From an uncultured Actinomycetes bacterium (GTDB lineage Bacteria > Actinomycetota > Thermoleophilia > Gaiellales > JAICJC01): a stretch of 64,000 bases of DNA. Location: NCBI GenBank assembly GCA_963731515.1, contig CAVSVU010000018.1, positions 114,424 through 178,423 of the forward strand, given 5' to 3'. The number at the start of each line of letters is the position of its first letter. Position 1 is the first letter of the stretch. Positions 41,576 to 60,186 of this stretch are shown piece after piece. The notes beneath the pieces were generated by a model. The model made no database searches, was not told where the DNA came from, and worked only from the letters and a program-made list of their open reading frames with translations. The position numbers and the translations under genes are program-made.

Positions 41576-42617
41576 GTGTCGGCGTTTGCAAAAGTCGGGA
41601 TCTGCACGCTGATCGCGGGCGCGATCGGCGCTGTCCTCGCAGCATGGTGGCTCCCCGACTGGTTCCCGCCCGCCGCCGGCGTCGAGGCACACCGCCAGGA
41701 CACGCTCTATCTGTGGCTGCTCGTCGTCAGCTCCCTGATCTTCGCGGTCGTCGTCGGCTTCCTGGGCTACTCGATGTGGAAGTTCCGGGCGCGGCCCGGC
41801 GACATGTCAGACGGCGCGCCGATCCACGGCCACACCGGTCTCGAGATCATCTGGACGGTGATCCCGATCGTCATCGTGCTCGGCTTCGCCGTCGCGGCCA
41901 CGATCGTGCTCAACCGCAACGAGGACCTGAAGAAGGGCCACATGGTGGTGAACGTGACCGGCAAGCAGTTCGCATGGTCGTTCACCTATCCGAAGCGCGG
42001 CCATCTGCACACCGGCATCCTGGCGCTCCCCGCCGGGCGCCAGGTCGAGTTCCGCCTGCACGCGCCGCCGACCGACGTCATCCACAGCTTCAAGATCCCG
42101 GCGCTCCGCGTCGGCGAGGACGTCGTCCCCGGCACGCCCACGACCGTCGTCGCCACCCCGACCCGGGTCGGCACCTACGTGATCGTGTGCGCGGAGCTCT
42201 GCGGCATCGGCCACAGCCAGATGCGCAACATCCTCGTCGTCATGAAACCCGCCGAACTGGAACCGCTGGCTGGCCCAGCAGAAGAAGCTCGCCAAGGCCC
42301 CGCCGCCGGCGCCGTCCGGCGGGACGACCGACGCGGCCGCGACGTTCAAGTCGGCCGGCTGCAGCGGCTGCCACACCTTCAAGCCCGACGGCGCCACCGG
42401 CACCGTCGGCCCCGACCTCGACGACCTGACCGCGTCGGCCGCCAAGTTCGGGCAGGGCGAGACGGCCGCCCAGTACGTGCGCGAGTCGATCGTCGACCCG
42501 GGTAAGGTCGTCGTCAGCGGGTACCAGAACGGCGTCATGCCCACCACGTTCGGCACCTCACTGACATCCGCGCAGATCAGCGCGCTCGTGTCCTACCTCC
42601 TGAAAGGCGGCGGCTGA
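41576..42617 (+). CDS. ctaC: Cytochrome c oxidase subunit II with fused C-terminal cytochrome c (caa3-type; apparent +1 frameshift near 42255)
   Basis: 'LEIIWT', 'DVIHSF', CuA 'CAELCGIGHSQM'. After frame correction, 'CSGCH...YVRESIVDP...VMP'. Confidence 0.88.
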
Positions 42618-45037
42618 TGGTTGCACATGCCTCCGAGCTTCACGGCCACGAACTCCACGCGGAAGGTCACGGAGGCGGGCCGAAACGGAGCGTATGGCTG
42701 CGCGGCAGCTGGGTGCGGGCGTTCTGGGTCTCGGCCGTCATGGGGCTCGGCGCCGCCGGGCTGGTGATGGCGATCCGCCACCAGACCGGCTTTTCCCCCG
42801 CCTACGACGAGGGCGTCGTGGACACGTTCCTGCTCGCGTTCGCCGGCCTCGGCTTCACGATCGGGATCGGCTGCTGGGACTACTGGTGGGGCTACCTGAT
42901 CGGCAACCCCACGCCGACGCACGAGGACCACTCCAACCACGGCGCCTACTCGTGGCGGGACTACTTCAAGGTCAACACCGACCACAAGGTGATCGGCGTC
43001 CAGTACCTCGTGACGACGTTCATCTTCTTCATCATCGGGGGCATGCTGGCAGAGGGCGTGCGCGCCGAGCTGGCGACGCCGGGCCTGCAGTACTTCTCGC
43101 CCGCCACCTACAACGCGCTCTTCTCGGTGCACGCGGCGCTGATGATCTTCCTGTTCGTGATCCCCGCGTTCGCCGGCCTGGGCAACTTCGTCATCCCGAT
43201 CATGATCGGCGCGCAGGACATGGCCTTCCCGCGCCTGAACGCGCTCTCGTTCTGGATGCTGCCGGTGGCGGGCATGTGCATGGTGTCGTCGTTCCTGGTG
43301 GGGCCGTTCGACGCCGGCTGGACGAACTACGCCAGCCTCTCCGTGCACGGGCCTCCCGGCCAGACGTTCTGGGTCATGGGCGTGCAGTTCGCCGGCGCGT
43401 CGTCGATCGCGACGGCCGTCAACTTCCTCGTCACCATCGTGACCATGCGGGCGCCGGGCATGAGCTTCTGGCGGATGCCGCTGCTCGTGTGGGCCAACCT
43501 GGCCACCTCGACGCTGGTGGTGCTGGGCACGCCGTTCATCGCGGGCGCGCAGTTCCAGGTGCTGTTCGACCGGATCATGGGCATGCACTTCTTCGACCCG
43601 ACCCACGGCGGCAACATCATCGTGTACCAGCACGTGTTCTGGTTCTACTCCCACCCGGCCGTGTACATCATGATGCTGCCCGGGTTCGGGATCATCTCCG
43701 AGGTGCTCGCGATCCACTCGCGCAAGCCGATCTTCGGCTACAAGCTGATCGCGATCTCGACCGTGGCGATCGGCGTGCTCGGCTTCACCGTGTGGGCGCA
43801 CCACATGTTCACGTCGGGGATGGCCCCATGGCTGCGGGTGCCCATGATGTTCACCACCATGGCGATCGCCGTGCCGACCGGGATCAAGATCTTCTCCTGG
43901 GTGGCGACGCTGTGGCGGGGGGTGATCCACCTGACGACGCCCATGCTGTTCGCCTGCGGATTCCTGTTCACGTTCGTGATCGGCGGCCTGTCGGGCATCT
44001 TCCTGGCCGTCATCCCCGTGGACATCAACCTGACGGACACCTACTTCGTCGTCGCGCACATCCACTACGTGCTGTTCGGCGGGTCGGTGTTCACGATCTA
44101 CGCGGGCATCTACCACTGGTATCCGAAGATGACCGGGCGGATGTACGACGAGAGCCTCGGCAAGCTGCACTTCTGGCTCACGTTCGTCTTCTTCAACGCG
44201 ACCTTCATGCCCATGCACTGGCTGGGAATGGAGGGGATGATGCGGCGGATCGCGGACTACCCGCAGAAGTGGGCCGACCTGAACTTCGTCATCTCGATCT
44301 TCGCGTTCGCGCTCGGGGCCTCCACGCTCGTGTTCCTCTACAACATGGCGCACAGCTGGTGGAAGGGCGCCCCGGCGCCGGCGAACCCCTGGCGGGCGCT
44401 CACGCTCGAGTGGCAGATCACGTCGCCGCCGCCGATCTTCAACTTCGACGAGCCGCCGCAGATCGTCGGCAGCCCCTACGCCTACGGCGTCCCCGGCGCT
44501 CGCCACGCCATCGTGACGGTGCACGTGCCGCCCGCGCCGGAGGAGATCCCCGTGCCGGTCGCGCTGGCCCAGGCCACGCCCACCCAGAGGGAGGCGATCA
44601 TGAGCGCGCTGAAGCACATCCTGGTGGTCGCCAACCAGACGGTCGCGGGCGAGGGCCTGATCGCGGCCGTGCGCAGCCGCGCTGCCACCGACCCGGTCCG
44701 GGTGACCGTCATCTGCCCGCAGAACGACCCGTCCGACACGTGGGTCGTCGACGAGGCCGCCGTGGCGGCCGCGACGCGGGCGCGGCTCGACGCCACATTG
44801 ACCGCGCTGCGGTCGGCCGGCATCGAGGCCACCGGGTACGTCGTCGACCGCGACCCGTTCACGGCCGTGCTCGACGTCGTCGAGTCCGACCCGCCCGCCG
44901 AGATCATCGTCTCGACGCTCCCGCGCACGCGGTCGGGCTGGATGCGGCGTGACCTGGTCGAGCGGCTGCGCGACCGGACGCAGCTGCCGGTCGAGCACGT
45001 GGTCGTCGACGAGCCGTCGGAGTCCACGCGCGCGTGA
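42617..45037 (+). CDS. ctaD: Cytochrome c oxidase subunit I (A2-type YSHP), as read fused to a C-terminal USP-like domain (44600-45037)
   Basis: 'TDHKVIG', 'DMAFPRLN', 'FWFYSHPAVY', 'VWAHHM', 'VAHIHY', 'MMRR'. C-terminal 'HILVVANQT...IIVSTLP...VEHVVV'. Confidence 0.93.
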   Translation: MVAHASELHGHELHAEGHGGGPKRSVWLRGSWVRAFWVSAVMGLGAAGLVMAIRHQTGFSPAYDEGVVDTFLLAFAGLGFTIGIGCWDYWWGYLIGNPTPTHEDHSNHGAYSWRDYFKVNTDHKVIGVQYLVTTFIFFIIGGMLAEGVRAELATPGLQYFSPATYNALFSVHAALMIFLFVIPAFAGLGNFVIPIMIGAQDMAFPRLNALSFWMLPVAGMCMVSSFLVGPFDAGWTNYASLSVHGPPGQTFWVMGVQFAGASSIATAVNFLVTIVTMRAPGMSFWRMPLLVWANLATSTLVVLGTPFIAGAQFQVLFDRIMGMHFFDPTHGGNIIVYQHVFWFYSHPAVYIMMLPGFGIISEVLAIHSRKPIFGYKLIAISTVAIGVLGFTVWAHHMFTSGMAPWLRVPMMFTTMAIAVPTGIKIFSWVATLWRGVIHLTTPMLFACGFLFTFVIGGLSGIFLAVIPVDINLTDTYFVVAHIHYVLFGGSVFTIYAGIYHWYPKMTGRMYDESLGKLHFWLTFVFFNATFMPMHWLGMEGMMRRIADYPQKWADLNFVISIFAFALGASTLVFLYNMAHSWWKGAPAPANPWRALTLEWQITSPPPIFNFDEPPQIVGSPYAYGVPGARHAIVTVHVPPAPEEIPVPVALAQATPTQREAIMSALKHILVVANQTVAGEGLIAAVRSRAATDPVRVTVICPQNDPSDTWVVDEAAVAAATRARLDATLTALRSAGIEATGYVVDRDPFTAVLDVVESDPPAEIIVSTLPRTRSGWMRRDLVERLRDRTQLPVEHVVVDEPSESTRA

Positions 45038-45063
45038 CCAACGCTCGCCGTCCGGCTCGCGTT

Positions 45064-45134
45064 CGTGGGGGAAACCAGGTTTCCCCCACGGCCCCCCTTC
45101 TTCTGAAAGCGTGGGGAACCTCCCGGTTCCCCAC
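45064..45134. repeat. Tandem REP-like hairpins between ctaD and ctaE
   Basis: CGTGGGGGAAACC-A-GGTTTCCCCCACG (45064-45090) and GTGGGGAACC-TCCC-GGTTCCCCAC (45111-45134). Confidence 0.7.
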
Positions 45135-45170
45135 ACCCCTCCCCGCTCCCGCAGCGACTGGAGTCACCGC

Positions 45171-45788
45171 GTGAGCGCCCACGCGGCCACGATCGACGGG
45201 CACGGGAACGGCGGCGAGGCCGCCCCGGTCTCGGCGTACCACGACAGCCTGCTGCGATCGCCGCTGTTCCTGGGCATGATCATGTTCCTGGGGTCGGAGA
45301 TCATGCTGTTCGGGTCGTTCTTCACGGTCTTCTTCTACCTGCGCTTCACGCACAGCCCGTGGCCGCCGACCGGCATCGACGTGCCCAAGACGCCGACCGG
45401 GATCAACACGACGATCCTGATCTCGTCGTCGTTCACGATGCACTGGGCGCTCGTGTCGGTCAAGCGCAACCGCCGCTTCGGACTCGTCTGCGGCCTGGCG
45501 CTGACGCTCCTCATGGGGCTCACGTTCCTGGCCCTGCAGGTGCACGAGTACCTGCACCTCGGCTTCACGCCGTCGACCGACGCCTTCACGTCGGGGTTCT
45601 TCTCGCTCACGGGCCTGCACGGCTTCCACGTGTTCGTGGGCGCCACCCTGCTCACGATCGCGCTCACCCGCTCGATCCGCGGCCACTACTCCGCCGGCGA
45701 ACATATCGGCCTCGAGGTCACCGGCCTCTACTGGCACTTCGTCGACGTCGTCTGGATCGTGCTCTACACCGTCGTCTACCTCCTCTAG
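45171..45788 (+). CDS. ctaE: Cytochrome c oxidase subunit III
   Basis: 'FLGSEIMLFGSFF', 'NTTILISSS', 'TGLHGFHV', 'YWHFVDVVW'. Confidence 0.93.
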   Translation: MSAHAATIDGHGNGGEAAPVSAYHDSLLRSPLFLGMIMFLGSEIMLFGSFFTVFFYLRFTHSPWPPTGIDVPKTPTGINTTILISSSFTMHWALVSVKRNRRFGLVCGLALTLLMGLTFLALQVHEYLHLGFTPSTDAFTSGFFSLTGLHGFHVFVGATLLTIALTRSIRGHYSAGEHIGLEVTGLYWHFVDVVWIVLYTVVYLL

Positions 45789-47020
45789 TGCGACGTCCCC
45801 TTCAGGACTCGGGCGTGCGCCCCGGGCCGTGGCTCCGGCTCACGGCTGTGGGCGCGTCCGTGGCCACGGCCCTGGTCGTGGCCAGCGGCGCCCTGCATTT
45901 CGGCGGCGCCCACCGCGCGCTCGCCCTGGTCGCGCTCGCGCCGATGCTGGCGATGGCCCTGGCGGCCTGGTTCGCCCATCCGCACCTGCGCCTGCCGTGG
46001 ATCGGCGCGCTCGCCCTCCTCCTCGCCGAGATCGCCCTGGGCGGCGTGGTCGCGCTGGCGTCCCCCATCCCGGCCCTACACTGGCTCCACGTCGGCGTGG
46101 CCGCGCTGGCGCTGGCAGCTGCGGTGGCGGGCACGGCCGCGACGCTCCGGGGGGAGCCCGTCCCGGCGGCCCCGTGGCGGGACTACCTGACGCTGACCAA
46201 GCCGCGGGTGATGTCGCTGCTGCTCTGGACGGGGGCCTGCGGGATGTTCGTCGGCGAGCAGGGCGTGCCGCCGGCCGGCAGGTTCGCCGCCGCGATGATC
46301 GGGCTCGCCCTCGCCTGCGGCGGCGCCAGCGCCCTCAACCACCTGCTCGACCGCGACATCGACCAGGAGATGACGCGGACGGCCGCACGCCCGGTCGCGT
46401 CGGGCCGCGTGGCCGCGCCGCGGGCGCTCGAGTTCGGGCTCGCCCTCTCGGCCGCGTCGTTCGTGCTCCTGTCGACCCTCGTGAACCCGCTGACGGCAGC
46501 GGTGGCCCTGGCGGGGAACCTGTTCTACGTGCTCGTCTACACCCGCTGGCTGAAGCGCTCGACCGTGCAGAACATCGTCATCGGCGGAGCCGCCGGCGCC
46601 GTGCCGCCGCTCGTCGGGTGGGCGGCCGCGACCGGGCGCCTCTCGGTGGGCGCGCTCGTGCTCTTCGTGATCGTGTTCGTGTGGACGCCGCCCCACTTCT
46701 GGGCGCTGGCCATGCTGATCAAGCGCGACTACGCGGCGGCCGGCGTGCCGATGCTGCCCGTCGTGCGCGGCGACCAGGCGGCGGCCCGCCAGATCCTGGC
46801 CTACTCGCTGGGGCTGGTTGCCGTCACCGCGCTCCCGGCCGCCGCCGGCATCGTCGGGCCGCTCTACCTCGCCGTCGCAGCCGTCGCCGGTGCCTGGTTC
46901 GTGTGGCTGGCCTGGCGGCTCGAGCGCGACCCGGTGCCGCGGCGGGCCGGGGCGCTCTTCCACTACTCGATGGTGTACCTGGCCGTGCTGTTCGTCGCCA
47001 TGGCCGCCGCGGCAGCCTGA
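45788..47020 (+). CDS. ctaB: Heme o synthase (protoheme IX farnesyltransferase) with N-terminal 4-TM CtaA-like extension
   Basis: 'LTKPRVMSLL', 'DRDIDQEMTRTAARP', 'NIVIGGAAGA', 'WTPPHFWAL'. Start may instead be GTG 45815. Confidence 0.9.
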   Translation: MRRPLQDSGVRPGPWLRLTAVGASVATALVVASGALHFGGAHRALALVALAPMLAMALAAWFAHPHLRLPWIGALALLLAEIALGGVVALASPIPALHWLHVGVAALALAAAVAGTAATLRGEPVPAAPWRDYLTLTKPRVMSLLLWTGACGMFVGEQGVPPAGRFAAAMIGLALACGGASALNHLLDRDIDQEMTRTAARPVASGRVAAPRALEFGLALSAASFVLLSTLVNPLTAAVALAGNLFYVLVYTRWLKRSTVQNIVIGGAAGAVPPLVGWAAATGRLSVGALVLFVIVFVWTPPHFWALAMLIKRDYAAAGVPMLPVVRGDQAAARQILAYSLGLVAVTALPAAAGIVGPLYLAVAAVAGAWFVWLAWRLERDPVPRRAGALFHYSMVYLAVLFVAMAAAAA

Positions 47021-47027
47021 CCGGCGC

Positions 47028-47249
47028 CTACTCCGCCAGGTCGCGGTACTCCCTGACGGCGTCGCGGATCCACTGCGCGCCGAAGATGATCGCCACCATG
47101 CCGCCGATCGACACGAGCGCGAGCCGCCAGATGCGCGCGTCGGGCACGAGCCCCGCCAGCACGAGCGCGATCCCGATCGAGGTCGCGAACGGGAGCGCCG
47201 ACGGCGCCGGCAGGTGGAAGCCGCCGCTGGTGTTGTCCTGATCAGCCAT
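47028..47249 (-). CDS. Small 2-TM protein, cytochrome c oxidase subunit IV (CtaF)-like
   Basis: 'FHLPAPSALP' followed by two TM helices, last gene of the second oxidase operon. Confidence 0.65.
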   Translation of the reverse strand: MADQDNTSGGFHLPAPSALPFATSIGIALVLAGLVPDARIWRLALVSIGGMVAIIFGAQWIRDAVREYRDLAE

Positions 47250-47358
47250 ATCGCACCAGCACTCCGACGAGCAGGGTCGCGGCGAACATCAGCAGCGAGA
47301 AGATGCCCAGCTTGAGACCGAGGACGAGGTTGCGCCGTGCGGTGGGCTTGTCGAGCAT
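47242..47358 (-). CDS. 38-aa single-TM protein, possible accessory oxidase subunit
   Basis: MLDKPTARRNLVLGLKLGIFSLLMFAATLLVGVLVRYG. ATG 5 nt after the ctaD-2 stop, own stop overlaps the next gene. Absent from the ORF track. Confidence 0.65.
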   Translation of the reverse strand: MLDKPTARRNLVLGLKLGIFSLLMFAATLLVGVLVRYG

Positions 47359-47363
47359 CGGCG

Positions 47364-49001
47364 TCAGTCTCCCGCGGCCGCGGCGGCCGCCTCACGGCGC
47401 AGATCGTACAGCGGCCGCTCGCTGCGGATCGGCGGCAGGTCGTCGAAGTTGTGCGGCGGCGGCGGCGAGCTCGTGTACCACTCGAGGCTGTTCGCGCCCC
47501 AGGGATCGGCGGGCGCGATCCGGCCCACCCGCAGCGAGTGGAGGCAGTTCCAGAGCACCATCAGGATGCCGGTGGCGAGCACGAACGCGCCGATCGTCGA
47601 GATCAGGTTGGCCGTGTCCCAGGCGTGGTTCGTGTACGTGCTGACGCGGCGGGGCATGCCCGAGAGGCCGAGGTCGTGCATGGGGAAGAACGTCATGTTG
47701 AACCCGACGAAGATGATCCAGAAGGCCCGGATCGCGAGCGCCCGGTCGAGCATCCGCCCGCTCATCTTCGGATACCAGAAGTGGACGCCGCCGAGCACGG
47801 CGAACACGGGCACCGTGCCGAGCACGTAGTGGAAGTGGGCGACCACGAAGTAGCTGTCGGTCACGTACAGGTCGATCGGGAAGGCCGCCAGGAAGATGCC
47901 CGAGAGCCCGCCGATCATGAACAGCCCGATGAACGAGACCGCGTACAGCATCGGCGGCTCGAACCGGATCCGGCCCATCCACATCGTGCCGATCCAGTTG
48001 AAGATCTTGACGCCGGTGGGGACGGCGATCGCCATCGACGCGATCATGAACCAGATCTGGAGCGGGGTCGAGAAGCCGACCGCGAACATGTGGTGGCCCC
48101 ACACCAGGAATCCCAGGAACGCGATCGCGACGATCGAGTAGACGAGCGCCTTGTAGCCGAACAGCGGCTTGCGCGAGAACACCGGGATGATCTCGGAGAT
48201 CATCCCGAACCCGGGCAGCGCCATCACGTACACGACCGGGTGCGAGTAGAACCAGAACAGGTGCTGGTAGAGGATCGGCCCGTGGGTGGCGGGCTGGTAG
48301 AAGCTCGTGCCGTAGTTGCGGTCGAGCAGCAGCATCGTCAGCGCCCCCGCCAGCACCGGGCCGGCGATCACGATCATCACGGCGTAGATGTCGATCGCCC
48401 ACGTGAAGAGCGGCATGCGCGTGAGCCGCATTCCCGGCGCCCGCATGTTGTGGATCGTGCAGATGAAGTTGATCGCGCCGATCAGCGACGAGATGCCGAG
48501 GATGTGCAGGCCGACGATCCACAGGTCGAGCCCGTGCCCGGGCGAGATGACCGAGAGGGGCGGGTAGGCCGTCCAGCCCGCGTCGGCGGCGCCTCCGCCC
48601 CAGACGAAGCTCGAGTACATCACGAGGCCGCCGAACAGGAGCAGCCAGTAGGAGGCGGCGTTCAGGCGCGGGAAGGCCATGTCGCGGGCACCGATCTGGA
48701 GCGGCACCAGGTAGTTCCCGAATGCGGCCATGACCGGCACGACGAACAGGAAGATCATCGTCGTCCCGTGCATCGTGAACAGGCGGTCGTAGGACTCCGC
48801 CGACACCACCTGGTTGTTCGCGTGCTCGAGCTGGAGCCGGATCGCGAGCGCCATCAGCCCGCCCACCGCGAAGAAGAAGAAGGTGGTGTAGAGGTACATG
48901 ATCCCGATCCGCTTGTGGTCGACCGTGGTCACCCACGACCACAGGCCGGAGGCGGGCCGGGCGGCGCCGGCGTGCGGAGCGGGTGTGGCTTCGGTCACCA
49001 T
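47364..49001 (-). CDS. ctaD: Second cytochrome c oxidase subunit I (A2-type YSHP)
   Basis: 'TVDHKRIG', 'HGTTMIF', 'FWFYSHPVVY', 'VWGHHM', 'VAHFHY', 'MPRR'. Confidence 0.95.
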   Translation of the reverse strand: MVTEATPAPHAGAARPASGLWSWVTTVDHKRIGIMYLYTTFFFFAVGGLMALAIRLQLEHANNQVVSAESYDRLFTMHGTTMIFLFVVPVMAAFGNYLVPLQIGARDMAFPRLNAASYWLLLFGGLVMYSSFVWGGGAADAGWTAYPPLSVISPGHGLDLWIVGLHILGISSLIGAINFICTIHNMRAPGMRLTRMPLFTWAIDIYAVMIVIAGPVLAGALTMLLLDRNYGTSFYQPATHGPILYQHLFWFYSHPVVYVMALPGFGMISEIIPVFSRKPLFGYKALVYSIVAIAFLGFLVWGHHMFAVGFSTPLQIWFMIASMAIAVPTGVKIFNWIGTMWMGRIRFEPPMLYAVSFIGLFMIGGLSGIFLAAFPIDLYVTDSYFVVAHFHYVLGTVPVFAVLGGVHFWYPKMSGRMLDRALAIRAFWIIFVGFNMTFFPMHDLGLSGMPRRVSTYTNHAWDTANLISTIGAFVLATGILMVLWNCLHSLRVGRIAPADPWGANSLEWYTSSPPPPHNFDDLPPIRSERPLYDLRREAAAAAAGD

Positions 49002-49005
49002 CGGG

Positions 49006-49755
49006 TCATGTCCTCTGGAGCTTCGCGGTGTAGGCGTTCCAGTCCGCCCGCGAGACCACCTTCACCGTGATGAGCATCGTGGCGTGGCCGATGCCGCAGA
49101 ACTCCGCGCACTGGCCCTTGAAGGTGCCGATCTGGTCCGCCTGGAACCAGGTCGTGTCGGTCTGGCCGGGAATCGCGTCGATCTTCGGGCCGAGCGCCGG
49201 CACCCACCAGTCGTGGTTGACGTCGATGGAGCGCACCTCGAGCTTCACCGGCGTGTCCACCGGCACCACCAGGGTGCTCGGGGTGCTCGGCGCCCTGCCG
49301 GAGGCTCCCGAGTTCGCGCCGTAGAGGTACGAGAACGAGAACTGCTGCGCCTTCACGTTGACGATGATCGAGTTCGACGGAGCGTCCTTCACGTTGCCGA
49401 TGTGGTCGAGCGTGTAGGCGGAGAGCGCCACCAGCACGAGCACGGGCGCGAGCGTCCAGCCCAGCTCCAGCCGGGTGGAGCCGTGCACCTGGGGCGGCTC
49501 GATATCCGGCTCGCCGGGGCGGACGCGGAACCGCAGCGCCGAGTAGAGCAACCAGCCGCCGACGAGCACGAAGATCGTCACCGTCACGCCGAGGACGGCC
49601 CGGTAGATGCTGTCCATCGCGTGCGACGCCGGCCCCGCGGGGTGCTGGAAGGTGGCCGTGTCCGCCGCCGCGGGCGCCGCCCCGAGCAAAAGCAACGTGA
49701 CCGCCGTGAACGCGGCCAGGACGAGCGGGCGCTGTCGGAGCGTGGGCACCTTCAC
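49006..49755 (-). CDS. ctaC: Second cytochrome c oxidase subunit II (no cytochrome c fusion)
   Basis: 'LELGWT', 'DVNHDWW', CuA 'CAEFCGIGHATM'. Confidence 0.92.
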   Translation of the reverse strand: MKVPTLRQRPLVLAAFTAVTLLLLGAAPAAADTATFQHPAGPASHAMDSIYRAVLGVTVTIFVLVGGWLLYSALRFRVRPGEPDIEPPQVHGSTRLELGWTLAPVLVLVALSAYTLDHIGNVKDAPSNSIIVNVKAQQFSFSYLYGANSGASGRAPSTPSTLVVPVDTPVKLEVRSIDVNHDWWVPALGPKIDAIPGQTDTTWFQADQIGTFKGQCAEFCGIGHATMLITVKVVSRADWNAYTAKLQRT

Positions 49756-52540: not shown

Positions 52541-53080
52541 GTGGTCGGCGCGTCGGTAGCGGGGCCGCTGGTCTCGGTACTGGCGGTCGTCTTGGTGGTG
52601 GCGGGAGCGGGCAAGCTGCGCGCACCGGCCGCCGCTGCCGACGCCCTGCGCTCGGCCGGACTGCCCGCCGGGGCCCTGCGGGCGCGCCTGGTCGGGGTGG
52701 CCGAGGTCGGGGCCGGCCTCGTCGTCCTCGCGTCGCCCAGCCGGCCCGCCCTCGCGGTCATGGCCGCGCTCTACGCCGTTCTGGGCGCCTTCGCGCTGCG
52801 CCTGCTGCTCGTCGCGGAGCCGGCCGCCTCGTGCGGGTGCTTCGGCGCCGACGCGCCCCCCTCGCCCCTCCATGCGGCGTTCGACGCCGGCGCGCTCGTC
52901 GTCGCCGCCGCGGCCGCGATCGACCCGCCGCCCGGGCTGCCCGAGCTGGCCGCGCGTGCCCCGGTCGCGGGCGTCGCCCTCGTGGCCGGCTGCTGTGCCG
53001 CCGCCTATGCCGTCACGCTCGTCCTCGGCCGCCTGCCACAGGCCGCGGCGGCCTACCGCCCGCGCCGGAGCGCCGCGTGA
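52541..53080 (+). CDS. MauE/DoxX-family membrane protein
   Basis: 'AGAGKL', 'AEVGAG', 'SCGCFG' motif, about five TM helices. Confidence 0.85.
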   Translation: MVGASVAGPLVSVLAVVLVVAGAGKLRAPAAAADALRSAGLPAGALRARLVGVAEVGAGLVVLASPSRPALAVMAALYAVLGAFALRLLLVAEPAASCGCFGADAPPSPLHAAFDAGALVVAAAAAIDPPPGLPELAARAPVAGVALVAGCCAAAYAVTLVLGRLPQAAAAYRPRRSAA

Positions 53081-53712
53081 CCGACCGGCTCGTCTCGGCC
53101 GCCTCGCGCCTGCTCGAGCGGCGCACGTCGCGGCGCGGCATCCTCGTGCGCGTCGCCATCGGCGGCTCGGCGCTGGCGGTGGCGCCGCTGCGCTACCTGC
53201 TCCGCCCGGGGAGCGCCGAGGCGGTCATCACCTGTCGCGACTGCCGCCCCGGCGCGCTCTGCTGCGACGGCTGGACCGAGTTCTGCTGCACCATCACCGG
53301 CGGGTCGAACACCTGCCCGCCGTACACCTTCATGGGCGGCTGGTGGAAGTGCACCAACTATCGCGGCACGAAGCTCTGTGGCTCCGAAGGCGTGCGCTAC
53401 TACATCGACTGCAACCGGCTGCCGGGGCAGTCCTGCCCGCACGGGTGCTCGTGCGCGGAGGGGCTGTGCCAGCACCGCTCGACCTGCTGCAACGTCTTCC
53501 GCTACGGGCAGTGCAACACCCAGATCGGCAAGGTGACCGAGGTCGTCTGCCGCATGATCACCTGCCAGAACCCGGGCCGCCTGTTCCCGGGCCAGTGCTC
53601 CCGGCACGTCCTCGTCGACGACCGCACCTGCGGCCACGAGGCGGCCTGCCTGGTGAAGGGCGCGGCCGCGCCGCCCTACACCGGCCTGCGCGCGGGCGGG
53701 GGTGCGCTGTGA
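53077..53712 (+). CDS. Tat-exported 22-cysteine protein, distantly MauA (amine dehydrogenase light chain)-like
   Basis: Tat motif 'TSRRGIL', AEA cleavage site, 'GGSNTCPPYT..GWWKC...RYYIDC' core. Confidence 0.8.
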   Translation: MTDRLVSAASRLLERRTSRRGILVRVAIGGSALAVAPLRYLLRPGSAEAVITCRDCRPGALCCDGWTEFCCTITGGSNTCPPYTFMGGWWKCTNYRGTKLCGSEGVRYYIDCNRLPGQSCPHGCSCAEGLCQHRSTCCNVFRYGQCNTQIGKVTEVVCRMITCQNPGRLFPGQCSRHVLVDDRTCGHEAACLVKGAAAPPYTGLRAGGGAL

Positions 53713-54380
53713 CGGCCGTCGTCACCGTCGAGACGCTGCTGCTCGTGCTGCTCGTGCTGCTGGTCGGGGGGCTCCTGCGCAGCCACGCAGAGATCCTGCG
53801 CCGCCTGGACGAGCTGCAGCCGGGCGGGACGGCGACGGCGGCCCCGGCGCGCACGTCGACGGCCGCGCACGACGTCTCCGGCGTGACGCTCGCGGGCGAC
53901 GCGATGCACGTCGGCGTGACCCGGCCCGGGACGGCAACGCTGCTCGCGTTCCTGACATCGGGCTGCAGCACCTGTGCCGGGTTCTGGGAGGCGTTCGCCG
54001 ATCCGCGCACCCGGCTGCCCGAGGGCGTCGGCCTCGTGGTCGTCACGAAGGATGCGAGCCACGAGAGCCCGGCGCGGCTGCGGGAGCTGGCGCCGTCCGG
54101 CGTGCGCGTCGTCATGTCGAGCAGCGCGTGGGTCGACTACGACGTCCCGGCGAGCCCGTACTTCGTGCACGTCGACGGCCGGGGCGAGCTGGCCGGCGAG
54201 GGCACGGCGCAGCGCTTCGACCAGGTGCTCTCCCTGCTCAACGACGCCGCCGACGACGCCGGCGAGGGCTCGGAGGAGCGCGCCGTCCGGGTCGAGCGCG
54301 AGCTGGCCGCCGCCGGCATCGGCCCCGATCATCCCAGCCTCCGTCCCGCATCGGTGCGGCATGGTGACGGCGCCGGCTGA
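53709..54380 (+). CDS. MauD-like membrane-anchored thioredoxin-fold protein
   Basis: N-terminal TM helix, 'FLTSGCSTC' CxxC, 'VPASPYF' cis-Pro loop. Confidence 0.82.
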   Translation: MTAVVTVETLLLVLLVLLVGGLLRSHAEILRRLDELQPGGTATAAPARTSTAAHDVSGVTLAGDAMHVGVTRPGTATLLAFLTSGCSTCAGFWEAFADPRTRLPEGVGLVVVTKDASHESPARLRELAPSGVRVVMSSSAWVDYDVPASPYFVHVDGRGELAGEGTAQRFDQVLSLLNDAADDAGEGSEERAVRVERELAAAGIGPDHPSLRPASVRHGDGAG

Positions 54381-55029
54381 GCTCGCCGTGGCCGTGCCGC
54401 TCGCGGTCGTCGCCGGGCTGCGCTCGCTGTGGTCGCCCTGAGGGGAGTCGATGCTCGGGAGCATCACTCCGCTCGGTGAGCGGAGCCGGGGAAGGCGATG
54501 GGGCGTCACGGTCACGGCCTTCGCGCTGGCCGCGGCGGCGGCCGGGGCGGGCGCCGGCGCGCTCCTCGGCGCGGCGGGCGGTCTCGCCGGCATCCCCGCC
54601 ACGATTCGGGTCGGCCTGCTCGGCGCGGCGGTGGCGGTCGCGATCGCGGTCGATCTCGTGCCCGGGGTGCGCCTGCCCGGCCCGCATCGGCAGGTGAACG
54701 AGGCCTGGCTGCACCGCTACCGCGGCTGGGTGTACGGGGCCGGGTTCGGGCTCCAGCTCGGCCTCGGCGTCACTACGATCGTCTCGACCGCCGCGGTGTA
54801 CGCGACCGGCGCCGCCGCGTTCCTGGCCGGATCGGCCGCGGCCGGCGCAGCCGTGGGCGCGGCCTTCGGGCTCGCCCGGGCGGCCACCCTGCTCGCCGCA
54901 GGCCGAGTCGACGAGCCGCGCGCGCTCGCGACCCTCGACCGGCGCCTGCACGCGTGGGAGCGTCCGGCCAGGGTCGTTGCGCTCCTCGCCGAGGCGGCGC
55001 TGATCGCGCTTGCGGTGGCGGTCGCATGA
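54361..55029 (+). CDS. MauF-like membrane protein with in-frame TGA at 54439-54441 (candidate selenoprotein)
   Basis: MVTAPAELAVAVPLAVVAGLRSLWSP-(TGA)-GESMLGSITPLGER... is in frame with ORF 54451..55029. 'HRQV...WVYGAGFGLQLGLG' motif. Confidence 0.75.
54444..54470 (+). promoter_or_regulatory. Candidate bacterial SECIS hairpin
   Basis: GGAGT-C-GATGCT-[CGGG]-AGCATC-ACTCC: 11-bp stem with one bulge, starting 2 nt after the TGA. Confidence 0.55.
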
Positions 55030-55469
55030 GGCTCGCGGCCCACGGCATCGCGCTCGACCTCCCGGCCGGCTGGGACGGGCGTATCTGGACGCGTTCGGGC
55101 GGCGGCCCCGTCGTGCACGCCGCCAACGTCGCCCTGCCCGCGACCGACGGCGACTTCGCGACCCGCGCCACCGAGGCGCTGCCCGCGGACGGCGTGGTGG
55201 TGGTGCTGGTCGACTACGGGCCCGGCGACGCCGGCACCCCGCTCTTCGCGGCCCCCGCCCCGGCCCGGATCGACCCGGCCGAGCTGTCTCCGTCGACGCT
55301 GCTCCACCGCCGCCCCGGCCAGCGCGGGCTGCAGCATTTCTTCACGACCGCCGGGAGGGCGATGTGCCTTTACGTCGTGGTCGGCTCGGCCGCACACGCG
55401 TCCGACCTCGCCGCCGGCGTCAGCCGGGTGCTCGAGACGCTCCAGGTTGAGATGGTGCCGACCGGCTGA
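55026..55469 (+). CDS. Hypothetical protein, last gene of the mau-like operon
   Basis: ATGA overlap with the preceding stop. MRLAAHGIALDLPAGWDGRI...FFTTAGRAMCLYVVVGS. Confidence 0.75.
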   Translation: MRLAAHGIALDLPAGWDGRIWTRSGGGPVVHAANVALPATDGDFATRATEALPADGVVVVLVDYGPGDAGTPLFAAPAPARIDPAELSPSTLLHRRPGQRGLQHFFTTAGRAMCLYVVVGSAAHASDLAAGVSRVLETLQVEMVPTG

Positions 55470-56717: not shown

Positions 56718-58353
56718 GTGCCCCGGAGCAGGCTTCTTCCGTCTCGGGTCTGGGCCCTGGTCAGCATCGCGGTCGTCGGCGTCTGCGTGGCCGGCCCGGC
56801 TCCCACGCAGGCCGATGTGCGGCCGGGCTCCGCGCTCGACTCCGCCGGCCTGGCCTCGCCGCCGCGGTCGCTGCTCTCGCTCGCGATGAGCCGCGGCCGC
56901 CGCCGGGCCGGACTACTCCGGAGCCCTGTGGGAGCCGGCCAGCCCGCTGAATTACACCGTCGCCGACCGGCCGCTGACGAACCCGATCACCCGGCTCGTC
57001 ATCCACGTCGCCGAGGGCAGCTGGGCCTCGACCTACACCTGGTTTCGCAACCCTCGCGCCGAGGCGTCCGCCCACTACGTCGTGTCCTCGACCGGCCGCG
57101 TTGCCCAGATGGTGCCCGACCGCGACATCGCCTGGCACGCGGGCAACTGGGCCTACAACGAGAGCTCGATCGGCATCGAGCACGCCGGGTTCACGAACGT
57201 CACCCGGTTCCCGGACGCCGAGTACCGCGGCTCGGCCAAGCTCGCCGCCTGGCTGGCCGACACCTACCTGATCACGCCCGACCGCAAGCACGTGATCGGG
57301 CACTACCAGGTGCCGGACCCGAACCATCCCGGGGAGTGGGGCGGCGTCGACCACCACACGGATCCCGGCCGCACCTGGAACTGGGCCCGCTACATGGCGT
57401 ACCTGCGCTCGGACGCGCAGGACACCGCTCAGCAGATCGTCGACAACGCCAGTCCTTCCGCCGTGCGCTACGACCCGTCCGTCTGGCACGTCGCGAGCAC
57501 GCAGTCCGGCCGCTACGGGGCGAACTACCTGGCCGCGGCGCCGCACGGGCCGTCGAGCCCGGTGCAGTACCGGGTGTCGGTGCCCGCGAGCGACCGCTAC
57601 GACCTGCTGATGCGCTGGCCGTGCGGGGCCGACTCCGCCAAGGCGGGCGTGGACGTCACGACCACCCGCGGCCTGCGCACCGCGACGGTCGACGAGGCCC
57701 GCGGCTGCGGCAAGTTCCAGTACGTCGGCAGCTACGACCTGGCGGCGGGCGCAGGCTGGCGGCTCCGGGTGAGCTCGGCGTCGAGCGCCCGCGGGACCAT
57801 CGTTGCCGACGCGTTCAAGCTCGTCGAGCAGACCGATCCCACGCCGCCGGCCGCGCCGTCGGTGACGACGAACCCCGCCGAGACCTCGATCGGCGTCACC
57901 TGGACGCGCGCGAGCGACAACATCGCCGTCGGCGGCTACCGCGTCGTCGTCGACTCGAAGCTCCGCTACCAGGGCACGAGCCGGACGCTGGCCGTCACCG
58001 GGCTCGCCTGCGACACCGTCCACACCGTGTCGGTGCGGGCGCTCGACATGGTGTCGAACCTCTCGCCGAAGGCGCCCGTCTGGGTGCGGACCGGGCCCTG
58101 CCCGCCGCCGCCGACGGGGCTCGTCGCGACGCCGGCCCGGAACTCGGTCGCCCTGCGGTGGACGGCTCCGGCCGCAGGGCTCACCTACCGCGTGCTCGTG
58201 AACGGCCGGCTCATCCGCACGGTATCGGGCACGACGTCGACGGTCGGCTCGCTCCACTGCGCCGTCACCCGCACGTTCTCGGTCGAGAGCGTCGATGCGA
58301 CACGCAGCATCTCCGCCCCTGTCGCGACCGACGCCACGACGCTCGGGTGTTGA
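56718..58353 (+). CDS. Secreted N-acetylmuramoyl-L-alanine amidase (Amidase_2) with accessory and FN3 domains (apparent +1 frameshift near 56892)
   Basis: After frame correction: 'LVIHVAEG', 'SAHYVV', 'AWHAGN', 'SIGIEH', 'GHYQVP', 'HTDPG', then two FN3-like domains. Confidence 0.85.
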
Positions 58354-58362
58354 GGGCCAGGT

Positions 58363-60186
58363 CTAGGGCGTCCGCAGGAGCCGGAACGTGCGCGCGCCCA
58401 GGCGGCAGGTCCCGGCGGGCACGAGGCCGGACCCGCCCAGGGCCGCGTGCGGCCTTGCGACCACCCAGCTGACGCCGGGCGGGACCGTCCCCCGGCCGAG
58501 CAGCGCCAGGTAGCGGGCGTGCCGCTCCTGCTGCGTCGGCGTCTGCTGCAGCCAGGTGCGGAAGCGCACCTTGGCGTGGACGATCTTCAGGAACAGCGAC
58601 GAGGCGGCGCTGCGCGAGAACAGGTTCAGGGCGATCGCGTCGGCGGTGGGCTCGCGGACGGCGGCCGCCGTGAGCGACTCCGCCGGCGGGAGCTGGGTGC
58701 AGGAGAGCTGGCGCGGATAGGCGTGGTGGACGGCCGCGGCCGTGGCGAGCACCGTCGAGGGGACGGCCACGGCGGCCACCGCCACCGCGACCGCGATCCC
58801 GCCGGCGCGGGCGGGGCCGCCGGCCAGCTCGACCAGGCGCTGCGCCGCGACGCCCGCGGGGACGGCGAGCGCGAGGACGAGGAACGGCAGGTAGCGCGAC
58901 CAGCGCAGCAGGGCCGGCGTGCCCAGCACCTCGGCGCCGTGGCCCAGGAGCGCGCCGCTCGCGCAGGCGACGGCCGGCACTGCGACGATCAGCGCGACTG
59001 CGAGCGTCGACATCCCCGCCGGCCTGCGGGCGATCGCGATCGTGCCGGCGGCGCCCAGCGGCAGGACGATCCCGAGCGCCACGATCGTCTGGCCGGGGGA
59101 GGGCAGGATGGGGGCGATGTGCGTGATCGAGACGAACCCGCCGTAGCGGTGGTAGTCGAGCGCGAGCGGCACGAGCCACACCGCCGCGACGACCGCGCCC
59201 GCGAGAACGGTGCGCCAGACCGCGAGGTCGCGGGCCGCGAGGGCGAGCACGACCGCCCAGGCGACGCAGAAGCCGCCTGCAAGCGGGCTGATGAGGAACG
59301 TGAAGCCGATCGCCGCGCCGGCCGCCCACAGCGCCTCGGGCCGGCCCCTGGCCAGCCCGCGCAGCATCAGCCACACCGCCAGCGGCGCCAGGCACGTTCC
59401 CAGCTCCCGCGGGATCAGCGGCGGGACGTTGCCGAGCGACGGCACGAGCACGTTCGAGAGCACGAGGTCGCCGTGGTAGGGGCCGAGGTTGACGCCGTTG
59501 GGGTGGAGCGCGGCCGCCGGGCTGTGCTGCCAGATCCAGCCGAACCCGGCCGCGGCGGTGAACAGGGCCGCCGCCCAGGCGGCGGCGGCGCGCGGCGCCC
59601 CCAGCTCGCGCGCGAGCAGCCACATCGCCAGCCAGCCGGCGGCCACACCGCCGACGTCGAGGGCGAGGATGGCCGCGTTCAGGTCGCCCGGAAGGGCCCC
59701 CAGAAGCCACGCGCCGATCGAGTGGTAGAGCCACGGATACGAGTTCGGCTCCCCCGCGTACACCCCGCCGGGCGCCGGGATGCCGGCGGCCAGCTGGCGG
59801 ATCCAGCCCTGGTGCCACAGCATGTCCTCGTGCGAGGGCCACAGGCGCGGCGTCGCCGCCAGGAACCCCGGGTAGGTGACGACGGCGGTGGTCGCCGCGG
59901 CGACGGCGAGCGGCCAGGCCGAGACCCGCCCCGGCCGCAGCGACGGGCGCCGCCATGCGACCAGCCCTGCGACCAGCACGGCGGCGATCCCCCGCAGCGC
60001 CCAGGGATGGCCGAGCAGGCCGACGCCGGCCGGCCCTTGCAGCATGGTCAGCCAGGCCAGGCCGACGGCGGCCAGGATCCCGTACGCCAGCCGCTCCGGG
60101 GCAGGCGAGGAGGGGGAGATCGCAGAGCCGCACACCCACACGGCCGCAGCCGTCACGGCCAGCGTCACCAGCGCAGACGCGATCAC
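58363..60186 (-). CDS. Polytopic membrane protein, possibly GT-C glycosyltransferase-like
   Basis: More than 10 hydrophobic segments and a first external loop 'HEDMLWH...YAGEPNSYPWLYH'. Confidence 0.6.
   Translation of the reverse strand: MIASALVTLAVTAAAVWVCGSAISPSSPAPERLAYGILAAVGLAWLTMLQGPAGVGLLGHPWALRGIAAVLVAGLVAWRRPSLRPGRVSAWPLAVAAATTAVVTYPGFLAATPRLWPSHEDMLWHQGWIRQLAAGIPAPGGVYAGEPNSYPWLYHSIGAWLLGALPGDLNAAILALDVGGVAAGWLAMWLLARELGAPRAAAAWAAALFTAAAGFGWIWQHSPAAALHPNGVNLGPYHGDLVLSNVLVPSLGNVPPLIPRELGTCLAPLAVWLMLRGLARGRPEALWAAGAAIGFTFLISPLAGGFCVAWAVVLALAARDLAVWRTVLAGAVVAAVWLVPLALDYHRYGGFVSITHIAPILPSPGQTIVALGIVLPLGAAGTIAIARRPAGMSTLAVALIVAVPAVACASGALLGHGAEVLGTPALLRWSRYLPFLVLALAVPAGVAAQRLVELAGGPARAGGIAVAVAVAAVAVPSTVLATAAAVHHAYPRQLSCTQLPPAESLTAAAVREPTADAIALNLFSRSAASSLFLKIVHAKVRFRTWLQQTPTQQERHARYLALLGRGTVPPGVSWVVARPHAALGGSGLVPAGTCRLGARTFRLLRTP

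Follow-up and report, generated by a model that had tools for sequence, protein, structure and literature searches.

An in-frame UGA codon in a membrane protein gene of an uncultured Actinomycetes bacterium is very probably decoded as selenocysteine (Sec), judging from sequence comparisons, and the gene product would then be a Sec variant of MauF, a candidate selenoprotein that is apparently uncatalogued. The gene lies in a window of 64,000 nucleotides, the whole stretch of DNA that we analysed. An original prediction, made from the letters of the window, had proposed that this UGA is a Sec codon, and it is supported by the selenocysteine machinery of the host, by an exchange of Cys and TGA codons among relatives that tracks the presence of selA, and by a covarying hairpin that is specific to the TGA genes.

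The gene and its in-frame UGA

The proposed reading frame runs from ATG 54361 through ...GLRSLWSP to the TGA at 54439-54441, continues into GESMLGSITPLGER... and ends at the stop codon at 55027-55029, and the sequence bears this out (Table 1). The read-through protein starts MVT and is 222 aa long, and its translation has no Cys, in agreement with the original prediction. Either ATG 54361 or GTG 54364 could serve as the start codon, and the gene overlaps the upstream gene by 20 nt.

Table 1. Features of the MauF-like gene, its candidate recoding signal and its operon (positions in the window)
Feature	Position	Strand	Remarks
MauE gene, CGC (CxC) motif	52541..53080	+	Pfam MauE E=3.9e-14
Tat-signal, 22-Cys protein; weakly MauA-like	53077..53712	+	
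Membrane-anchored MauD-like thioredoxin-fold protein, CSTC motif	53709..54380	+	TIGR02661 E=7.5e-5, below cut-off
MauF-family membrane protein gene	54361..55029	+	222 aa with UGA read as putative Sec27; exact start uncertain
In-frame TGA in W-S-P-U-G	54439..54441	+	Aligned with Cys of MauF WSPCG and CcdA SPC
11-bp hairpin	54444..54470	+	Best naked-RNA fold; lower stem not conserved; competes with helix II
Helix I, upper 6 bp of the first-noted hairpin	54450..54465	+	More conserved in TGA than in Cys genes; covers AUG 54451
Helix II, conserved SECIS-like hairpin	54467..54485	+	8-bp stem, GGU loop 33 nt from UGA, -12.7 kcal/mol
147-aa gene without assigned function	55026..55469	+	Kept downstream in the window's subclade

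The TGA does not stem from an assembly error, as the original prediction had argued: no other letter occurs at 54439-54441 in 29 soil metagenome contigs covering 54400-54500, which come from 4 runs (4 studies) and are contigs, including those of relatives, rather than raw reads. Gene callers truncate these MauF-like genes and annotate the remainder 3' of the Sec codon. The database product for the gene studied here is 192 aa long and begins at ATG 54451, and the WSPCG/WSPUG motif is present in none of the best 120 database matches. The named close homologs come from Gaiellales.

The host genome (G000, 91% complete) was found to contain all of selA, selB, selC and selD. The matches to selA, selB and selD are above cut-offs, and the tRNA-Sec has a TCA anticodon. 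A formate dehydrogenase-like gene in the same genome (G000:C14:376712; locus L107), matched in pieces across frames, likewise contains an in-frame TGA, and the loop of the hairpin that follows, GGUCU, lies 18 nt from it. The host Sec system thus probably serves this gene as well. At 492 aa from the first matched residue, the SelB of the host is short (G000:C25:117873-119348; locus L002:1498-2973), and it matches Pfam SelB-wing_3 only, not wing_1 or wing_2, a feature that may bear on SECIS spacing. The host SelD is the Cys form (G000:C16:58775-59695; locus L010), unlike the SelD of G399, G521 and G661, which contains a TGA. In G454:C1 and G415:C2, selA lies within ~5 kb of the MauF-like gene.

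Exchange of Cys and TGA codons among relatives

We surveyed the class to which the host belongs, in which 74 of 301 genomes matched. The two weakest of the 80 match rows were set aside, and the other 78 gave 76 loci; three of these (L093, L094 and L098) had no motif and were dropped, giving a class set of 73 loci in 71 genomes. The site codon is TGA in 40 of the 73 and TGC or TGT in the other 33, in the same alignment column. All 40 TGA loci are in selA-positive genomes. Of the 33 Cys loci, 28 belong to genomes that have no selA match and the other 5 to genomes that do. Position 27 is Cys or Sec throughout 73 sequences, for which the motif itself served as a selection criterion.

The survey was then widened to the phylum, where 87 of the 401 Actinomycetota genomes sampled had a profile match, a tally that includes the unpublished G301, G345 and G412, which are excluded from the selA and hairpin counts. 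Outside the host class most have TGA. In 73 further genomes a TGA falls within the match in 67, of which 62 have selA; the remaining 6 have no stop in the match, and 3 of these 6 have selA. The position of the TGA was confirmed directly in 33 further loci, drawn from 18 top matches and 20 chosen loci, the latter including 5 Cys loci and 3 of the five exceptions, the TGA genomes without a selA match. Across all loci compared, Cys aligns at the TGA site as had been predicted, with 38 Cys loci and 73 TGA loci sharing one column. The TGA is thus kept in other genomes and is not unique to the host, and the covarying hairpin that goes with it, described below, is helix II.

Kin are not independent, so that raw locus counts overstate significance, and for this reason we built a tree from an alignment that omits the codon and the 17 residues after it. 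The tree requires 5 label changes between Sec and Cys. Three Cys groups (L032; L066 and L073; L039, L045, L051 and L065) are nested among Sec rows. Every one of them is selA-negative, and in none does helix II persist in its register, only 2-4 of 7 pairs being left. A single clade of Cys rows is rejected (p-AU 4e-5). Because the tree is unrooted, a Sec-to-Cys 'reversion' in these groups is something that we infer and do not read from it directly.

A conserved hairpin downstream of the UGA

The recoding signal had been sought in an 11-bp hairpin close to the UGA. This hairpin is present, beginning 2 nt after the TGA with a loop 14 nt from the codon, but it is not the conserved SECIS-like element. 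As a single-sequence fold it lies within the range of chance (z = -1.57), with 15 of 200 shuffles folding as well. When it was evaluated as a SECIS across loci, 59% of cells were paired and its covariation of 0.143 was below one slid control, and a loop at 14 nt falls outside the published range of 16-37 nt.

When registers were scanned without bias across the 40 class TGA loci, +29-35 / +41-47 came out best, with 92% paired compared with 36% in Cys loci; in the same scan the register of the first-noted hairpin gave 75% in TGA loci versus 66% in Cys loci. RNAalifold recovers the same helix as the register scan, helix II. In this helix 90% of cells are paired, 6 of 7 pairs have two-sided changes and the score is above all slid controls. 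Pooled over the 73 TGA loci and 38 Cys loci, pairing in helix II is 85% versus 40%, in the upper stem of the first hairpin 84% versus 62%, and in its lower stem 38% versus 48%. With the register fixed and out of sample, helix II is paired at 79% in 33 TGA loci versus 66% in Cys loci, a small gap that involves only 5 Cys loci. A shifted hairpin with a GGUC loop is used by about 6 TGA loci in the out-of-sample set.

Passages of PMC13188914 give the bacterial SECIS rule as a G in the first two loop positions, a spacing of 16-37 nt and a folding energy of <= -7.5 kcal/mol. Under our own strict implementation of this published rule, which is distinct from bSECISearch, 56 of 73 TGA loci pass and 17 fail; the corresponding passes are 4 of 38 among Cys loci and 525 of 3000 among background sites. 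The helix II of the host conforms to these criteria, and fits the bacterial consensus in the same passages (PMC13188914) with its 3-nt G-first loop, 8-bp stem and 33-nt spacing, whereas the first-noted hairpin with its 14 nt does not. It departs from that consensus in being preceded by a second short helix, and it differs from the host formate dehydrogenase-like gene, in which the loop is at 18 nt rather than 33 nt. Rfam has no SECIS family match at 54300-54600. When G000 was scanned for the same hairpin geometry, 7 of 73,054 TGA sites had it at the exact offset, including the MauF-like site; none of the other sites listed looked gene-like by eye, and the formate dehydrogenase site was not recovered at any of the offsets listed.

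Two further observations concern the segment between the UGA and helix II. A synonymous Thr site is ACC in 39 of 45 TGA loci versus 10 of 29 Cys loci, a bias that supports helix I, counted over kin that are not independent. Computed folds of the naked RNA give the 11-bp hairpin, and folds in which +1 to +9 are held unpaired give helix I together with helix II. In the 11-bp hairpin, the original prediction had thus found half of a two-helix element.

In the mechanism that we propose, SelB would, in all likelihood, bind the G-containing loop of helix II and insert Sec. A ribosome on the UGA, by blocking +1 to +9, would switch the 11-bp hairpin to helix I plus helix II. The role of helix I may be to hide the internal AUG behind an SD-like UGAGG, or to shorten the distance to helix II. 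Under the second possibility, helix I would fold out 16 nt and place the loop of helix II effectively 17 nt from the UGA, close to the 18 nt of the host formate dehydrogenase gene.

Relationship to MauF and CcdA

The MauF-like character claimed for the protein holds up in profile comparison (hhalign 99.5%, E 1e-22 and 3e-22, with WSPCG aligned). Its closest annotated counterparts are the MauF proteins of the mauFBEDACJG clusters of Paracoccus denitrificans PD1222 (L111) and Methylobacterium sp. DM1 (L112), which were located via MauD. Homology extends over ~180 columns in which the WSPCG, RxQV and GLxLG motifs are aligned, and the gene is likewise accompanied by MauE and MauD-like genes. Unlike MauF, the protein has the putative Sec in place of the WSPCG Cys and is without the ~55-residue N-terminal extension; unlike in the mau cluster, the partner is a 22-Cys protein that is MauA-like only weakly.

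A more distant relationship connects the protein to CcdA, to which it has a weak profile match (5VKV, E=8e-4, SPC aligned). The predicted model (pLDDT 95) shows six membrane segments, of which the first, at Sec27, and the fourth are broken, a helix pattern that fits the six-TM inverted-repeat fold of CcdA/DsbD (5VKV; Pfam DsbD_2). CcdA works with a cysteine pair, according to passages of PMC7329351, whereas the second active-site Cys, in TM4, is absent in the MauF-like family. Fold searches gave no CcdA among the matches listed, the best Z of 6.8 being to unrelated bundles. At E<=0.001 the profile matches 5,949 cluster representatives, some of which may be distant DsbD-type proteins, and a tblastn search of a Cys homolog against plasmids found nothing. 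Many homologs are long forms (L033-L096) with a C-terminal extension of 230-370 aa, in which Pfam names no domain in most of those tested. Many f4 and f2 members carry one more Cys, 13 residues beyond the Sec/Cys.

Operon context and a proposed function

The MauF-like gene is the fourth of five overlapping genes. The operon order recurs in the subclade, and the more distant homologs inspected also adjoin MauE, MauD-like and Cys-rich genes, among the matches listed. Both Cys of the MauD-like protein are invariant in 28 homologs. Neither MauB nor MauG has a match in the host genome (91% complete), and this is therefore probably not a methylamine dehydrogenase system. The BLAST match of the 22-Cys protein to MauA is confined to the signal region, and a forced MauA alignment retains one Trp near CPP and none at the second cofactor Trp. 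The protein has a feature-level likeness to PF02975 clusters, with a weak recognition score, and the Cys-rich protein has no sequence match in the PDB.

Among divergent TGA copies, L081, L083, L091 and L097 adjoin short Tat-type Cys-rich peptides, in tandem in L083, which from their sequences look like disulfide-rich secreted peptides. Elsewhere in the window, an amidase-like gene recognized by eye on the minus strand (56718-58472) is apparently split over two frames, with a shift in GC3 phase near 56750-56900. The interval 42617-49755 contains two genes resembling cytochrome c oxidase subunit I, one on each strand, neighboured by subunit II/III-like and heme O synthase-like genes (all by eye).

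From its gene neighbours and its relation to CcdA, the protein is probably a single-selenol membrane redox relay that aids folding of the Cys-rich exported protein of the operon. Sec27 would sit at the break in predicted TM1, like the first Cys of CcdA. As disulfides form and rearrange in the 22-Cys protein, it could shuttle electrons between the MauD-like/MauE pair and the cytoplasmic side; in these particulars our confidence is evenly balanced. There is no second Cys, so to replace the internal disulfide of CcdA such a relay would have to form a mixed Se-S bond with a partner or act as a dimer.

That a CcdA disulfide is impossible with a sole Cys/Sec would also be compatible with a Sec that is inserted but binds a metal or small ligand in a transporter-like protein, rather than serving a thiol-disulfide relay. 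Some database entries are named 'sulfite exporter TauE/SafE', and the selenoprotein catalogue includes, in passages of PMC13188914, Sec in metal transporters. We nevertheless consider this reading unlikely. The neighbours handle disulfides, comprising MauE, a CxxC thioredoxin and a 22-Cys substrate; MauE of other phyla has been shown to replace DsbB in E. coli, as described in passages of 10.64898/2026.03.05.709764; and the TauE family is matched by none of the 73 members at E<=0.01.

A variant of the single-selenol relay differs from it in sidedness. Here the MauD-like domain would face the cytoplasm and oxidise the Tat substrate ahead of its export in an oxidative relay, with Sec-MauF carrying the electrons out to MauE and quinone. 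The MauD-like protein has no Lys or Arg before its anchor and three Arg just after. The positive-inside rule relates charge near a membrane anchor to the cytoplasmic side, so this pattern suggests a cytoplasmic domain, and Tat exports folded proteins, which fits oxidation before export. However, the topology is deduced from charge counts only, and MauD is described in passages of 10.64898/2026.03.05.709764 as DsbA-like, with a role outside the cytoplasm. We regard this arrangement as improbable, to much the same degree as ligand binding.

Taken to its full extent, the preferred reading of a single-selenol relay would place this among the most widespread of the unannotated selenoproteins in Actinomycetota, related to CcdA and decoded by a two-helix recoding signal, a proposal in which we have limited confidence and which we offer tentatively.

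Other readings of the UGA

A route other than Sec insertion, by which the UGA would be decoded as Trp, Cys or some other amino acid, could be invoked for the five TGA genomes without a selA match. Each of these, however, carries other Sec genes (selB, selC and selD in G399; selB and selD in G519; selC and selD in G521 and G661; selB only in G462, in which the MauF-like gene also contains a TAG). Moreover, homologs show Cys and not Trp at the site, and UGA is a normal stop here because all five operon genes end in TGA. We therefore judge a non-Sec route highly improbable. That the UGA is a true stop, marking a pseudogene or followed by a restart at ATG 54451, is the least credible reading of all: although 107 of the best 120 database matches begin at the downstream Met, a GAGG 7 nt upstream of ATG 54451 could permit internal starts and an ATG is found at +13 in 69 of 73 TGA loci, the same ATG encodes an internal Met in 31 of 38 Cys loci, the segment upstream of the UGA is conserved and Cys homologs continue through it, the TGA is exchanged for TAA or TAG in none of the 111 loci, and a restart would remove TM1 and the only invariant Cys.

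Comparison with known selenoproteins and implications

We compared the protein with catalogued selenoprotein families. Table 1 of the 2026 catalogue of 119 families (PMC13188914), the part considered here, lists neither MauF nor CcdA. Among catalogued selenoproteins only TsoB (rhodanese/DsbD fusion-like, NF045694) is named with DsbD; by description it has two Sec in a UxxxxU motif together with a rhodanese domain, unlike the single-Sec MauF-like protein. NF045694 matches none of the 73 members at E<=0.01, nor does any other selenoprotein model in NCBIfam 20.0 match any of them at that threshold. The available passages of the BSepDB paper (PMC13326102) contain no mention of Mau, DsbD or CcdA/TauE, and the same holds for these terms in passages of the deep-Sep paper (PMC12013277). 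No Sec-MauF family is among those named in passages of an Actinomarina preprint or described in passages of PMC13449736. A search of openly accessible literature listed no description of Sec-MauF and no tested biochemical function for MauF.

Sec-MauF would thus add a membrane selenoprotein family that is missing from the 119-family catalogue of 2026. It raises the question of how a relative of CcdA operates with one redox residue. Sec is usually the catalytic residue of the proteins that contain it, and its presence here therefore points to the WSPCG Cys as the working residue of MauF. The Sec form would make the chemistry of MauF directly testable.
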